Positions 31,129 to 52,655 of a DNA stretch of 64,000 bases are shown piece after piece. A model generated the notes under the pieces. That model had not been told where the DNA came from and made no database searches. It saw only the letters and a program-made list of their open reading frames with translations. Where the stretch lies: assembly GCF_030013595.1 (NCBI RefSeq), contig NZ_CP122768.1, one strand, 5' to 3'. Numbering within the stretch: position 1 is the first letter of the stretch; every line of letters begins with the position of its first letter. Position numbers and translations under genes: made by a program. The stretch comes from Escherichia coli (GTDB lineage Bacteria > Pseudomonadota > Gammaproteobacteria > Enterobacterales > Enterobacteriaceae).

Positions 31129-32232
31129 ATGACCGACACCACCATGCAATTGCTCAGTCAGGGCACAGACCCCGTGAAAATGCCGGATTTTGATATTCTT
31201 GCGGAGGGTAAAACGCTGTCAGGCGTGGCAGAGCGCCTGATGAGCCTGTCACTGACCGACAACCGGGGATTTGAGGCGGACCAGCTCACCATCACGCTGG
31301 ATGATGCGGATGGTCAGTTGCAGCTACCGCCACGGGGCGCGCGCCTGACGGTTCTCATTGGCTGGAAAGGAGAACCGCTGACAGAAAAAGGCACTTACAT
31401 TGTTGATGAAATCGCTCACGAAGGACCGCCGGACAGGCTGACAGTTTCAGCCAGAAGCGCAGATTTTCGGGATGAATTTAACGTTAAACGTGAGGTGTCC
31501 TGGCATGATGTGACCGTTGAGCGTGTGGTATCCGCCATCGCTCATCGGTATGGTCTGAAATCGCAAATCAGCGAAATGCTGATGGATATTGAAATCGACC
31601 ACGCCGACCAGACCGAAGAAAGCGACATGTCCTTCCTTACGCGCATGGCGGAAATGCTGGGCGCAATCACTACGGTAAAAAGCGGTAATCTGTTATTCAT
31701 TATGCCAGGCGGTGGCGTGAACGCGCAGGGCCAGCCGTTGCCCTCGTTCGCCATCACACGCAGCAGCGGCGATCGCCATCAGTTCCGCATTGCTGACCGA
31801 GAGGCGTATACGGGGGTACGCGCTTACTGGCTTGATCTTAATTACGGGAAAAAGAAAAAAGTCAGCGTGAAACGCCGTAAACCGCCAAAACCCAAAAAGG
31901 AGAAAAGCAGCAGCCGTGAAGGTGATTATATGGAAGGCGCGGAAGGCAATGTGTTTGTGTTACGCAAGACTTATCAGAACGAGCAGGCAGCAAGACGCGC
32001 AGCGGCGGCAAAGTGGCAGCAGCTACAACGCGGAGCCGCAGCGTTCTCCATCACATTGGCACGTGGACGCGCAGAACTCTACCCCGAAATGCATGGCACG
32101 GTAACAGGCTTTAAAAGCGAGATTGATAATCAGGACTGGATTATTGCGAAAGCCGAGCACACCATTGATAACAGCGGCTTTACCACGCAGCTTGAGCTTG
32201 AGGCAAAAATCCCGGAATGGATAGCAGAATGA
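31129..32232 (+). CDS. D: Tail protein D (P2 gpD, late control gene D family)
   Basis: Start at MTDTTMQLL with AGGGAGGG ribosome-binding site; size and position as P2 D. Confidence 0.8.
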   Translation: MTDTTMQLLSQGTDPVKMPDFDILAEGKTLSGVAERLMSLSLTDNRGFEADQLTITLDDADGQLQLPPRGARLTVLIGWKGEPLTEKGTYIVDEIAHEGPPDRLTVSARSADFRDEFNVKREVSWHDVTVERVVSAIAHRYGLKSQISEMLMDIEIDHADQTEESDMSFLTRMAEMLGAITTVKSGNLLFIMPGGGVNAQGQPLPSFAITRSSGDRHQFRIADREAYTGVRAYWLDLNYGKKKKVSVKRRKPPKPKKEKSSSREGDYMEGAEGNVFVLRKTYQNEQAARRAAAAKWQQLQRGAAAFSITLARGRAELYPEMHGTVTGFKSEIDNQDWIIAKAEHTIDNSGFTTQLELEAKIPEWIAE

Positions 32233-32396: not shown

Positions 32397-33032
32397 TTAG
32401 CGAGCTAATATATTCAAAGAATTTAACAATTGAGTGTCGAGTGTTTCAGTTGCAGGAATCGGTAATCCATTCGCAATGCGGTAATTTTTCACAGACAGCC
32501 TTGTGGATGGCCCCATTATGCCGTCAATATTTCCGTTATAAAATCCCCTGTCCAGCAATGCGAACTGAACTCGCATAATCAATCGCTTACGTTTCTCTGC
32601 ATCAGAAGCAAGCCCATTACTCGTACGGTTAACCTCTGAAGTTCCAACAGAACTCGTGTTAGTGGTTCTATTATTATCGTTAGAACGAAGTGCACGCACC
32701 GAGGAAGAGGACGATGAGGAACTTGCACCTGAACTTGAAGAACCAGATGAACTTGGTGAGCTGTATGTTTTTGGATAATAGGGGGTACTTCCACCATAGT
32801 ATCCACCACCTGATGAGGATCTATGAGAGCTATGGCTCCTATGAGAACTATGGCTTCGATGCCCTGCGATATAAAATGGGACTTCCGTGTTAAGTGGAGC
32901 TATCACTAAATCATGCTCATTAAGAGTCATACCAGGTAAATCACTCGCTCCTGTAGATGAATCGCTTGCCCATACAGAATTGTTGAGAGCCAAAAATCCC
33001 GGAAGTAGAGCAGCAAAATTAAACTTTTTCAT
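32397..33032 (-). CDS. hxsA: His-Xaa-Ser repeat protein HxsA: secreted precursor with Gly/Ser/Tyr-rich linker and C-terminal peptidoglycan-binding domain
   Basis: Signal peptide MKKFNFAALLPGFLALNNSVWA; HRSHSSHRSHSSHRS repeats; C-terminus LLDRGFYNGNIDGIMGPSTRLSVKNYRIANGLP resembles PG_binding_1; ATGA overlap with hxsC. Confidence 0.8.
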   Translation of the reverse strand: MKKFNFAALLPGFLALNNSVWASDSSTGASDLPGMTLNEHDLVIAPLNTEVPFYIAGHRSHSSHRSHSSHRSSSGGGYYGGSTPYYPKTYSSPSSSGSSSSGASSSSSSSSVRALRSNDNNRTTNTSSVGTSEVNRTSNGLASDAEKRKRLIMRVQFALLDRGFYNGNIDGIMGPSTRLSVKNYRIANGLPIPATETLDTQLLNSLNILAR

Positions 33033-46163: not shown

Positions 46164-46421
46164 ATGCGTACAACCCAACAATTCAGCATTACATTAACTA
46201 ACGAAATGGCTGACATGGTGCGCGCCCGTGTGGCTTCCGGTGCCTATGCTTCAGAAAGCGAGGTCATTCGTGAAGGGCTTCGCGCACTGAATGAGCGCGA
46301 TAAAGCAATCGAAGCGTGGTTAACGCATTCAGCCGCCCCCTCTCTTGATTCTATCCGCGAAACCCCAAACAACGGACGCTCCATTTCACAGGTTCGCGCC
46401 GCGATTCGATCCGGGAAGTAA
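46164..46421 (+). CDS. parD: ParD-family antitoxin (ribbon-helix-helix)
   Basis: GTGAGGT ribosome-binding site; ITLTNEMADMVRARVASGAYASESEVIREGLRAL is a typical ParD/CopG fold; paired with downstream toxin. Confidence 0.75.
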   Translation: MRTTQQFSITLTNEMADMVRARVASGAYASESEVIREGLRALNERDKAIEAWLTHSAAPSLDSIRETPNNGRSISQVRAAIRSGK

Positions 46422-46426
46422 TCTGC

Positions 46427-46726
46427 ATGACATATGAAGTCATCATTACTCCTGAGGCCGAACAACAAATAATCAACCTGCACAGGTATATAACGGAGAA
46501 AGCAGGGAACGTCATTGCTGACAATTATGCCAATGCGCTTCTTGATTATCTTGATGGGTTTTCTACATTCCCGCATCGGGGCAATAAACGCGATGATATT
46601 CGCCAGGGGATGCGGGTAACTCATTTCCGCCACAGAACGATTATTGCTTTTGCCGTTGATAGCAGAAAAGTCTTTATTGTCGGTATCTATCATGGTGGGC
46701 AAAGTTATGAAACCGATTTCTTATAA
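46427..46726 (+). CDS. parE: ParE/RelE-family toxin
   Basis: 99 aa, 5 bp downstream of the antitoxin; RelE/ParE-like motifs. Confidence 0.75.
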   Translation: MTYEVIITPEAEQQIINLHRYITEKAGNVIADNYANALLDYLDGFSTFPHRGNKRDDIRQGMRVTHFRHRTIIAFAVDSRKVFIVGIYHGGQSYETDFL

Positions 46727-49765: not shown

Positions 49766-50227
49766 TCAAACAAAACCAGCCGCTTTCCGGCGTTCATATT
49801 CCTGTTTCAGCAACTCAATTGGCGTTGGTCCCGACGGGTGTTTGGGTGCCGCCAGTTGTCGCCGGACTGGCGGAATGCTCAGGCCATTACCAACATGCTT
49901 TGCCCATTTCGTCAGTTGCCATTCTGCAAGCCGTTTTAACTCCCCTTCGGTCATCTGGCGCTCAATCCCCTTTGAACGCATCTCGAGGCAAATGTGATAC
50001 AGCACAGGCTGAGACCACGGGTACTTATCACTTCCGTCGTATCGCCAGGACTCATTGCGCCAGCGGCGGTACTCCTCCATCACAGCATCCACCGTCAGAC
50101 CAAATGGATTGGCTCCGCTTTCCGAAATCAGCGCCACAAACTCAGCCAGGTCCGGAGGCCATGTTTCACCCGCCCGGCAGCGGTCCATGCACTGGCGGCA
50201 GACCTGCCGGATTTGCTGCTCAGTCAT
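49766..50227 (-). CDS. Replication protein, lambda P-like (helicase loader C-terminal region)
   Basis: DKYPWSQPVLYHICLEMRS...TEGELKRLA parallels lambda P (ESYPWKSNAHYWLVTNLYQ...TDAELRRKA); start set just after the initiator stop. Confidence 0.6.
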   Translation of the reverse strand: MTEQQIRQVCRQCMDRCRAGETWPPDLAEFVALISESGANPFGLTVDAVMEEYRRWRNESWRYDGSDKYPWSQPVLYHICLEMRSKGIERQMTEGELKRLAEWQLTKWAKHVGNGLSIPPVRRQLAAPKHPSGPTPIELLKQEYERRKAAGFV

Positions 50228-51245
50228 CGCGCCAATCTGTGCAATCCAGAGCTTCGAAGGTGCGGCCCCGTTCTTCTGGGTCCAGCGGTTCGAATAAACC
50301 TCCCCCATGAGTTCCCACAGCTTCCAGGCCGTTTCCGTCGCTGATAAATCCGTTTTCACGTTCCCACTGCTCACGTGCTGCCCGAATTTCCTGAACTGCT
50401 CGTGATGCGGTGCCACCTGGTGCTGCTGCATGGTTTACCCCCTTGCTGACTGGTTTAACCTGCGCCCTGACGTGATTTACGTGACGGGCGAATTTCTGCT
50501 CCCACTGAATCTGCGTGAACACTTTCCCCTCCGCTGCCCAGTAGTCCCGGAAGGCTGCAAATTCAGCTGGTGTAAATTCCGGCTCAGGCAGAGCCACTCC
50601 CCACAGAGCAGCCCGTCGTCGAAAATCCGGCGACGGATGCCAGCCATCGGTCATCGGAAATTTCCCGATGGGTTCGCTCATGCCGTCCAGATATTCGGGC
50701 TCCGGTGTCTGCGATGGCGTACCGTTCGACTCACTGGTCGTAGCTCTCTCGCGCACGCGCGCGTTATGTGTGGGGTTTAATTCTTTATCTGTATCTTTAT
50801 CTGTCGTGACTCGTCGTGACATGTCGTGACATATGCGTGACTCGTCGTGACACCCCTCATTCTGTTTTCGTAATTTTTCCCTCTCGCGCTGCGCTCTCTT
50901 GCGCTCTGCCGGGGATTTCGCGGTTTGTGAAACGTTGCCATTGTCCTCTTTCAGTACCTGGCGTTTTTCCCATCCAGTGATTAAATCACCATCAAGTACC
51001 CGCCCCTGCATCGTCTGCAAAATTGAATCAATTACCTCTTCTGTCACGTCGAGCGCACTTGCCAAATCTTCTGTCGTGACATCAATGTGACCTCGCGTGA
51101 CATTTCGTGACGCGCTCACCAGGAGGTGGATATACACTGCCATCACTGTTGCAATTGGCTGCCCTGACACCCTGGCAATTGTTCGCCACTTAGGGTCATT
51201 TGGCATGTCATGCCATAATCTGAGCCAAGCGTTAGCCATACTCAC
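50220..51245 (-). CDS. Replication initiator (YdaU/O-like) containing the origin iterons
   Basis: 341 aa; two clusters of TCGTGAC iterons inside the coding sequence, as in lambda O/ori. Confidence 0.6.
   Translation of the reverse strand: MSMANAWLRLWHDMPNDPKWRTIARVSGQPIATVMAVYIHLLVSASRNVTRGHIDVTTEDLASALDVTEEVIDSILQTMQGRVLDGDLITGWEKRQVLKEDNGNVSQTAKSPAERKRAQREREKLRKQNEGCHDESRICHDMSRRVTTDKDTDKELNPTHNARVRERATTSESNGTPSQTPEPEYLDGMSEPIGKFPMTDGWHPSPDFRRRAALWGVALPEPEFTPAEFAAFRDYWAAEGKVFTQIQWEQKFARHVNHVRAQVKPVSKGVNHAAAPGGTASRAVQEIRAAREQWERENGFISDGNGLEAVGTHGGGLFEPLDPEERGRTFEALDCTDWRDD
50801..51112. repeat. Origin-like iterons: two clusters (about 50801-50853 and 51072-51112) of GTCGTGAC-type repeats at roughly 10-bp spacing
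   Basis: Five and four copies respectively, flanking an AT-rich tract. Confidence 0.6.
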
Positions 51246-51310: not shown

Positions 51311-51736
51311 TCAATGTACTGCCACAGCATTTCCTGCCGGGCCACCACGGTTCATCTGATTGAAACCGGCGATTGCCACTGCGACAAAATCATCAGCGTC
51401 TCTCACCAGTCGCTCCCGCGTCTCCACCAGCTCCCGAAAATAAGCTGAACTGTGGCTGCGCATTCTGGCCACCAGCAAAGGTGGCATTGCCTTTTCGATC
51501 GCTGGTAACAACGTCTGAATTTTTTCAACTGCATCAGGGGTGTCTTTCTCTACCCAGCGGAAAATTTTCTGGGTATTGCGAGCCAGGGCTTCCGGATGGC
51601 TATCGTCATACAGTTCAGGAAACGTCATACCCAACTCAAAATAAGCCTGGGTTATTCCAGCTGCTGGAACTTTTTCGCCATCAGGACGCGCCCAGGCATT
51701 CATCGCCATGCGGATGTGTTCATGCTTGATTTTCAT
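51311..51736 (-). CDS. ydaT: YdaT-like protein (Rac prophage family)
   Basis: Begins MKIKHEHI as I recall E. coli YdaT; 141 aa. Confidence 0.55.
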   Translation of the reverse strand: MKIKHEHIRMAMNAWARPDGEKVPAAGITQAYFELGMTFPELYDDSHPEALARNTQKIFRWVEKDTPDAVEKIQTLLPAIEKAMPPLLVARMRSHSSAYFRELVETRERLVRDADDFVAVAIAGFNQMNRGGPAGNAVAVH

Positions 51737-51758: not shown

Positions 51759-52055
51759 TCAGGTATGATCAAATGAGGATTTGTTACTGTCATTTAGTTG
51801 CTTCACTGACATATTCTGCGAACAACATGCCGAACGTCGTAAATATGACCAGTCAATATCAGGACGAAGTTCTTCGCACAGAACCTCACCTCTTGTTGCA
51901 CGTTCAATTGCTGGACATCTCTCGGCAGGCAATTGACGTACCCCTTTGATCCATTGATTTACGCTTGGAGGTGATACACCTAAAAGCCTAGCCATTGCTG
52001 ATTGCCCACCGACAACAGCACAAGCTTGCTTGAATGAATAGTTCTCTTTTTTCAT
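51759..52055 (-). CDS. ydaS: Cro-like HTH protein, YdaS-like
   Basis: MKKENYSFKQACAVVGGQSAMARLLGVSPPSVNQW matches my memory of Rac YdaS; divergent from the repressor. Confidence 0.6.
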   Translation of the reverse strand: MKKENYSFKQACAVVGGQSAMARLLGVSPPSVNQWIKGVRQLPAERCPAIERATRGEVLCEELRPDIDWSYLRRSACCSQNMSVKQLNDSNKSSFDHT

Positions 52056-52178: not shown

Positions 52179-52655
52179 ATGCTTAGTGGTAAAGACTTAG
52201 GCCGAGCGATAGAGCAGGCCATTAACAAAAAAATCGCATCGGGATCCGTCAAATCAAAGGCGGAGGTCGCACGCCACTTCAAAGTCCAACCACCATCAAT
52301 TTATGACTGGATTAAGAAAGGCTCTATAAGTAAAGATAAACTTCCAGAATTATGGCGTTTCTTTTCTGATGTTGTTGGTCCAGAGCATTGGGGGCTTAAC
52401 GAATACCCCATACCAACCCCCACCAATTCAGATACAAAAAGTGAACTTTTAGATATAAACAACCTTTATCAAGCAGCCTCTGATGAAATAAGAGCGATTG
52501 TAGCTTTCCTGTTATCTGGAAATGCTACAGAACCAGATTGGGTTGACCACGATGTTCGCGCCTACATAGCAGCGATGGAAATGAAAGTGGGTAAGTATCT
52601 GAAAGCTCTAGAATCTGAACGGAAAAGCCAGAACATCACAAAAACTGGAACTTAA
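52179..52655 (+). CDS. Prophage repressor (XRE-type HTH, RacR-like position)
   Basis: 158 aa; N-terminal helix-turn-helix; flanked on both sides by the same palindromic operator motif. Confidence 0.6.
   Translation: MLSGKDLGRAIEQAINKKIASGSVKSKAEVARHFKVQPPSIYDWIKKGSISKDKLPELWRFFSDVVGPEHWGLNEYPIPTPTNSDTKSELLDINNLYQAASDEIRAIVAFLLSGNATEPDWVDHDVRAYIAAMEMKVGKYLKALESERKSQNITKTGT

Follow-up and report, generated by a model that had tools for sequence, protein, structure and literature searches.

The stretch of Escherichia coli DNA analysed here (64,000 nucleotides of contig NZ_CP122768.1; "the window") contains, in a Rac-like lambdoid prophage, a replication initiator gene (50220..51245, minus strand) whose coding sequence carries two arrays of short direct repeats. 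We regard these repeats, with a probability of about 80% and on the strength of sequence comparisons, as iterons of a theta-type origin of the prophage that lies inside the gene of its own initiator. The initial annotation of the window had proposed replication origin iterons in the initiator gene of a lambdoid prophage, and the comparison with related phages supports this proposal. The helical phasing of the repeats, the conservation of their synonymous sites, their co-inheritance with the N-terminal domain of the initiator (N-domain), their replacement in other lineages and the A+T-rich tract at their side amount to the behaviour of initiator-binding sites. The relatives of the gene indicate that the two arrays are not equivalent: only the one with five copies, which adjoins the A+T-rich tract, is nearly universal in the family.

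Two phased repeat arrays and an A+T-rich tract

The linker array (50803..50851, minus strand) consists of five direct copies, with the core GTGAC starting on the plus strand at 50806, 50816, 50826, 50837 and 50847 (spacing 10/10/11/10 nucleotides (nt)). The upstream array, nearer to the 5' end of the gene (51073..51111, minus strand), has four, starting at 51076, 51087, 51097 and 51107 (spacing 11/10/10 nt). All nine copies share one orientation, the steps inside both arrays measure 10 or 11 nt and average 10.3 nt, and the consensus in the orientation of the gene (minus strand) is (T)GTCACGAC, i.e. a direct repeat of 8–9 bp. The last core of one array is 229 nt from the first core of the other, with a gap of about 221 bp. 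A single inverted copy (TGTCACGTC on the plus strand, 51042..51050) lies 33 nt past the upstream array in gene order, and relatives with GTCAC-type repeats keep such a copy at the corresponding position. The initial annotation, which described two clusters of five and four copies at about 10-bp spacing and about 220 bp apart, was correct in coordinates, copy numbers, spacing and distance, and also in placing all repeats inside the 341-amino-acid (aa) open reading frame (ORF), which holds every copy. A repeat finder, named there as a possible check, agrees for the linker array: Tandem Repeats Finder reports 50803-50851 with period 10 and 4.8 copies. The four-copy upstream array was missed by this program at its thresholds.

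The A+T-rich tract (50772..50804), likewise noticed in the initial annotation as adjacent to the repeats, is A-rich on the coding strand and contains two copies of the 12-nt unit TCTTTATCTGTA, which Tandem Repeats Finder places at 50782-50804. The G+C content of the gene (about 54%) falls to its minimum of 35–37.5% at 50760-50819, directly beside the five-copy array. We propose that this tract serves as DNA-unwinding element and, as discussed below, as a recombination joint. On its far side follows a G+C-rich palindrome, CGCGCACGCGCGCG (50750..50763), which is common to this gene and to ydaU of Rac-SA53 and resembles the palindrome next to the AT-rich region of lambda.

The clustering of the arrays is far beyond chance. 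The 64-kb window was simulated 300 times with an order-3 Markov model, and the maxima for GTGAC were then 3 copies in 50 nt and 5 in 320 nt, against the observed 5 and 9. Chains of at least four copies at 9–12 nt spacing have an expectation of 0.01 per 64 kb. The window contains three GTGAC/CGTGA chains, every one of them at the initiator locus, and no other phased array of the iteron core was found elsewhere in it. Whole-window counts of the 7-mer TCGTGAC or the 9-mer GTCGTGACA alone do not reach significance (11 vs 6.9 expected; 17 vs 12.9); the signal resides in local clustering. Two separate observations on short motifs of the window may be recorded here. The sole other phased short repeat is CTATG, present four times at 9-nt spacing (32821-32848), which is probably a small tandem repeat. 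Over the whole window CGTGAC occurs 34 times on the plus and 9 times on the minus strand, with only 8 of the 34 in the origin arrays; biased codon use or gene orientation, most genes being on the minus strand, may account for this skew.

The conserved signal is in the DNA

The spacing of 10–11 nt places the cores in all three reading frames, and the encoded peptides (..SASRNVTRGHIDVTT.. and ..CHDESRICHDMSRRVTT..) are therefore not repetitive. When synonymous codons were resampled with the amino-acid sequence held fixed, the gene contained 2.1 +/- 1.3 copies of GTCAC and at most 7 in 5000 trials, while 10 are observed. Comparison with homologues from Aeromonas phage pAEv1818 and Pseudomonas phage P7869, whose N-domains are about 73% identical in protein sequence to that of the initiator, revealed that third-codon positions within the cores are unchanged in 11/11 and 13/13 cases, as compared to 39–45% outside the cores (Fisher p about 6e-5). 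The A+T-rich tract is also kept at the nucleotide level in the E. coli, Aeromonas and Pseudomonas phages. These comparisons indicate that what is conserved is a signal in DNA rather than in protein.

Domain organization of the initiator

The gene encodes 341 aa if translated from the GTG at 51245; RefSeq gives 340 aa from the ATG at 51239, a start two codons later. E. coli ETEC1732 has an identical region (100%), in which RefSeq names the product "DnaT-like ssDNA-binding domain-containing protein" (ssDNA, single-stranded DNA). The protein matches PHROG 1408 and 3729, both annotated as "replication initiation protein", and its sole Pfam match is the DnaT domain (PF17948; aa 196-262, encoded by 50460..50660, minus strand; 62.9 bits vs a cut-off of 25), a region that also matches the DnaT structures 6aep, 4ou6 and 9zbt in the PDB (E 3e-20 to 1e-18; 3e-20 to 8e-19 for the first two).

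The N-domain (aa 1-95, encoded by 50961..51245, minus strand) matches no Pfam family above threshold. In an AlphaFold2 model built on a 53-sequence alignment, aa 10-95 are predicted with a pLDDT (predicted local distance difference test) of 89–98, with helices 18-27, 31-47, 58-65 and 69-79 and a hairpin at 80-88; we consider this domain, possibly of a winged-helix-like fold, the putative iteron-binding domain. Residues 132-160 are predicted to be disordered (pLDDT below 50). The linker array encodes aa 131-147, which follow the folded part of the N-domain (aa 10-95) and precede the DnaT-like domain; together with the A-rich tract the array forms the coding sequence of the disordered linker. 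The upstream array encodes aa 45-58, i.e. the loop between helices 31-47 and 58-65, a surface loop of the domain that presumably reads it. Weak PHROG matches of aa 3-164 point to "replisome organizer" and DnaD-like families (E 7e-8 to 7e-4), and Pfam Phage_rep_org_N (PF09681, the family of SPP1 G38P and Tuc2009 Rep) gave a match in a single one of 53 members, and this below threshold (E 0.028; 14.9 bits vs a cut-off of 23.3). A distant relationship to the replisome organisers is conceivable. By sequence criteria, the N-domain defines a family outside Pfam, with no detectable relation to lambda O or SPP1 G38P.

Arrays across the initiator family

We delineated the family by the N-terminal 130–160 aa of the initiator. 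More than 560 IMG/VR loci encode this domain. Members of the family are carried by Escherichia, Aeromonas, Pseudomonas, Ralstonia and cyanobacterial phages. For 74 unique and diverse loci we determined, in the first 620 nt of the gene, the best 5-mer repeated at a spacing of about 10 or 21 nt. It occurs on average in 6.55 phased copies in the gene segment, as compared to 2.29 copies (maximum 5) in flanking controls. An array of at least three phased copies is found at the linker position (gene nt ~345-460) in 70 of the 74 relatives, and a second array of at least three copies (nt ~123-250) in 31, the other 43 having none. The 30 nt past the last linker copy contain 59% A+T, vs 41% in the gene segment (Wilcoxon p = 6e-13). 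This pattern of occurrence, together with the A+T content past the linker array, argues that the five-copy array and the A+T-rich tract are the conserved unit, to which the four-copy array is, on the same comparative grounds, a lineage-restricted addition.

The core itself differs between lineages (GTCACG, GCAACG, GTGACG, GTAACG(CCA), GAAACG, CGAACGC, AACGCCA), so that distant relatives have different repeats at the same position of the gene; wherever both arrays are present in the surveyed loci, they always share one core. Between a conserved "AS" and an invariant "RG" the loop encoded by the upstream array comprises 4 to 30 residues across the family and is longer where there are more upstream copies (Spearman 0.92 over 113 loci, which are not independent); it accepts insertions of 7 to 26 residues. 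Upstream copy number is 3 to 10 in the relatives that have this array. The allele seen most often in close relatives carries six upstream copies and not four; the two forms differ by an insertion of 21 nt, which equals two iterons and seven codons. Very large arrays occur in three GTGAC-type IMG/VR loci (L108, L120 and L124), with 8–10 upstream and 6–7 linker copies, and loops of 24–30 residues accompany such very large GTGAC-type upstream arrays across the family.

Modular exchange at the A-rich tract

Megablast searches split the gene into two parts. Phages Evi, Tritos and others match positions 50782-51245, i.e. the N-domain with both arrays, at about 94% identity. Positions 50220-50802, i.e. 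the C-terminal half and the beginning of the P gene, are matched by ydaU/ydaV of Rac-SA53 and by the PPompW prophages at about 93%. The two sets of matches overlap only at 50782-50802, in the A-rich 12-nt repeats, which identifies these repeats as the joint between the modules. In other loci the N-domain and arrays are joined to different, non-DnaT C-termini, and the helicase partners of N-domain genes are of P-like, DnaC-like, primase/helicase or DnaB-like type. The repeats are inherited with the N-domain when the C-terminal half is exchanged, as these alignments show. The only partner of the arrays that is constant across the family is the N-domain, which suggests that it is the N-domain that reads them and argues against YdaT, the repressor or a host factor in this role.

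In phage Evi (L001 597-2958) the same N-domain occurs with arrays of 4 + 5 copies, and the 12-nt A-rich unit is present three times; Pfam recognizes nothing in the C-terminal half of this gene, and the annotation shows no helicase-loader gene beside it. The origin of the Rac prophage, oriJ, has been reported as active (PMC3945230). We considered oriJ as evidence for the allele studied here and rejected it: the N-domain of Rac-SA53 ydaU is of another type (DUF1376), and the gene lacks GTCAC arrays. Beside the same A-rich tract this gene carries two copies of TGTT(C/T)(A/G)AACACC, 24 nt apart (L002 3110-3150), which may be the binding sites of the DUF1376-type N-domain.

Proposed mechanism

From the arrangement of sites and domains we infer the following course of initiation. 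The N-domain, possibly winged-helix-like, would bind the direct units (T)GTCACGAC, one per helical turn and on one face of the DNA. N-domain monomers on the five-copy array (50803-50851) would nucleate an oligomeric complex resembling the O-some of lambda, and this complex could destabilise or open the neighbouring A-rich tract (50772-50804). The DnaT-like domain and the C-terminal tail might then hold the opened strand and recruit the lambda-P-like loader with the host DnaB helicase. In this scheme the linker array and the A-rich tract would make up the core of the origin. The four-copy array (51073-51111) and the inverted copy would provide additional, auxiliary sites for the same initiator, and both probably strengthen or regulate assembly of the complex by cooperativity, looping or titration.

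A more specific role of the upstream array can be suggested tentatively. With copy numbers of 0 to 10 and loops of 4–30 residues, the array grows and shrinks by iteron units (21 nt, two iterons, seven codons), so that the number of sites in cis and the shape of the factor acting in trans change in one mutational step. It is conceivable, if rather doubtful, that the array is a rapidly evolving element of replication control or incompatibility that works through handcuffing or titration, or a diversifier of origin specificity among competing prophages.

Alternative explanations

Several results weigh against an origin at this place. The distance between the arrays varies from 158 to 286 nt among lineages and corresponds to no fixed number of helical turns, and for this reason a fixed helical phase, or a strictly phased loop, between them was considered and rejected. 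The A+T-rich tract is only about 30 bp long. No characterised iteron-binding protein is matched significantly by the N-domain, in sequence or in structure: Foldseek searches of the PDB gave weak matches only, all with E above 0.3 and almost all to winged-helix regulators, the best being CAP, MepR, ArsR and CodY (E 0.4–2); no homology to lambda O was detected (no match to Pfam Phage_rep_O; hhalign probability 0.2% with the family profile); and neither gp18 of phage L (hhalign probability 1.7%) nor SPP1 G38P (0.3%, not significant) is detectably related. Full-text literature searches found no paper on the origin of this initiator family. The prophage may also be defective, with an origin that is unused in this strain.

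Against this background, the arrays could bind the initiator for regulatory purposes only (repression of its own gene, titration or copy control of the handcuffing type, as at incA of P1 or incC of F), with the true origin elsewhere. The upstream array would fit such a role, as it lacks a strongly A+T-rich neighbour and as its absence from 43 of 74 relatives and its variable copy number in the others are to be expected of an accessory or control locus. The linker array argues against it, being present in nearly all relatives (70 of 74) and having an A+T-rich tract after it, in the manner of a DNA-unwinding element; moreover, the window offers no other phased array of this core, and the position within the gene agrees with lambda ori, SPP1 oriL and the putative origin of phage L. 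We consider this explanation unlikely. It appears less probable still that some other protein binds the repeats, for instance the cII-like YdaT, the repressor or a host factor, as in an internal promoter or control site. YdaT is encoded directly upstream, and cII of lambda binds direct repeats within a coding region; however, the neighbouring genes vary across the family, a cII-like gene is present in some loci only and the helicase partners are of four kinds, whereas the core of the arrays changes with the lineage of the N-domain, their only constant partner. Furthermore, no promoter-like site overlaps the arrays, and in our reading the core is unlike DnaA, IHF or SeqA sites.

Finally, the repeats might have arisen as a side effect of coding for a repetitive peptide, or through replication slippage in a linker that tolerates it, and be without function as DNA. 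The predicted disorder of the linker and the insertions accepted by the upstream loop could be taken to favour this, but cores in three frames encode no repetitive peptide, their synonymous positions are invariant across hosts of differing G+C content, codon resampling fails to reach the observed count and differing lineages keep differing cores at the same place. An explanation of this kind is extremely improbable, and we favour the interpretation of the repeats as origin iterons.

Genomic context and distribution

The order of genes, namely racR (divergent), ydaS, ydaT, the initiator gene, the lambda-P-like loader gene, DUF1627 and DUF977, with RusA and Q genes beyond, identifies the locus as the early-right operon of a Rac-like lambdoid prophage of E. 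coli. Upstream of the initiator gene, the same operon contains the cII-like ydaT (51311-51736, minus strand) and the cro-like ydaS (51759-52055, minus strand), preceded by a sigma-70-like site (52111-52082); the racR-type prophage repressor gene (52179..52655, plus strand) is transcribed divergently. The loader gene (49766..50227 from the RefSeq start, minus strand; "replication protein P") scores 59.2 bits with Pfam Phage_lambda_P and matches PHROG 109, "P-like helicase loader". Its longest ORF (49766-50431) reaches 204 nt into the initiator gene, and the RefSeq start at 50227 overlaps the initiator stop by 8 nt. PHROG 15931 matches both the initiator and the loader, as if the two were fused in some phages. 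In the nin-like region of the prophage RefSeq also annotates a ParD/ParE-type toxin-antitoxin pair on the opposite strand (~46164-46726).

Of 5,426 complete E. coli genomes, 657 contain a match to at least 80% of the initiator gene. Plasmid records contained the gene only in prophage-like insertions or phage-sized circles, and no minimal replicon based on it was found among them. The present analysis gives a precise and testable candidate origin to a very common replication module, whose initiator gene is annotated in databases only as "DnaT-like domain protein". The lineage-specific cores on a conserved protein scaffold offer a natural series for studies of how initiator-origin specificity evolves and how prophages in one cell avoid cross-talk, and the joint in the A-rich tract marks the place at which replication modules are swapped. 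These results leave the general view of lambdoid replication as it was; the lineage-specific cores and the location of the second array in an expandable protein loop are details of moderate interest.

Comparison with known systems

The comparison with lambda is one of mechanism and not of protein family. Lambda has four iterons at nt 349-433 of the O gene, followed by an A-rich tract, and the linker array of the present gene occupies nt 395-440. In lambda and, as proposed, in the present gene the origin lies in the middle of the gene, in the linker between an origin-binding N-domain and a loader-binding C-terminal part, with iterons followed by an A-rich AT tract and then by G+C-rich sequence, and in both a lambda-P-type loader gene is located downstream and cro- and cII-like genes upstream. 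The iterons themselves differ: those of lambda are inverted-repeat sites of 18–19 bp placed 20–24 bp apart, while here they are direct repeats of 8–9 bp at 10–11 bp, and the present gene has in addition a second array 229 nt upstream as well as the DnaT-like domain. Variation in the number of iterons, with residues added to the protein, is common to both systems. In Shiga toxin (Stx) phages the iterons number six and the protein is longer by 13 residues (PMC7466680).

The closest match in style of repeats, itself a prediction only, is gene 18 of Salmonella phage L, in which six 11-bp TGTCCAACGGA repeats have been described as a putative origin (PMC8022706; GenBank MW013503, rep_origin 31650-31726). 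As in the present gene, these are short direct repeats at 10-nt spacing in two groups (gene nt ~397-473), with an AT-rich tract directly after them. The two groups of phage L are 35 nt apart within the linker, whereas here they are separated by 229 nt and one is within the region coding for the DNA-binding domain; the partner in phage L is a DnaB-type helicase and not a P-type loader. In Bacillus phage SPP1, oriL is situated inside gene 38, which encodes the replisome organiser G38P, and consists of AB boxes and an unwinding element, a fragment of 356 bp being enough in vitro (PMC5737612). The likeness consists in repeats bound, here presumably, by the initiator and an AT-rich unwinding element, here a proposed one, inside the initiator's own gene, and in an initiator without an AAA+ domain. 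The second G38P-binding site of SPP1, oriR, lies far off in the genome and not in the same gene.

Two clusters of the same direct repeats served by a single initiator, with one cluster beside the unwinding region, are also found in plasmids P1 (incC/incA) and F (ori2/incC). The second cluster of these plasmids is variable in number and dispensable in many relatives, and in this respect it can be likened to the upstream array, for which a control role is a hypothesis. In P1 and F the clusters lie on either side of the rep gene, with repeats of about 19 bp, whereas here both arrays are within coding sequence. An iteron origin within a phage initiator gene is a known arrangement, and the present locus is most likely a further instance of it, in a different and little-studied family of initiators.

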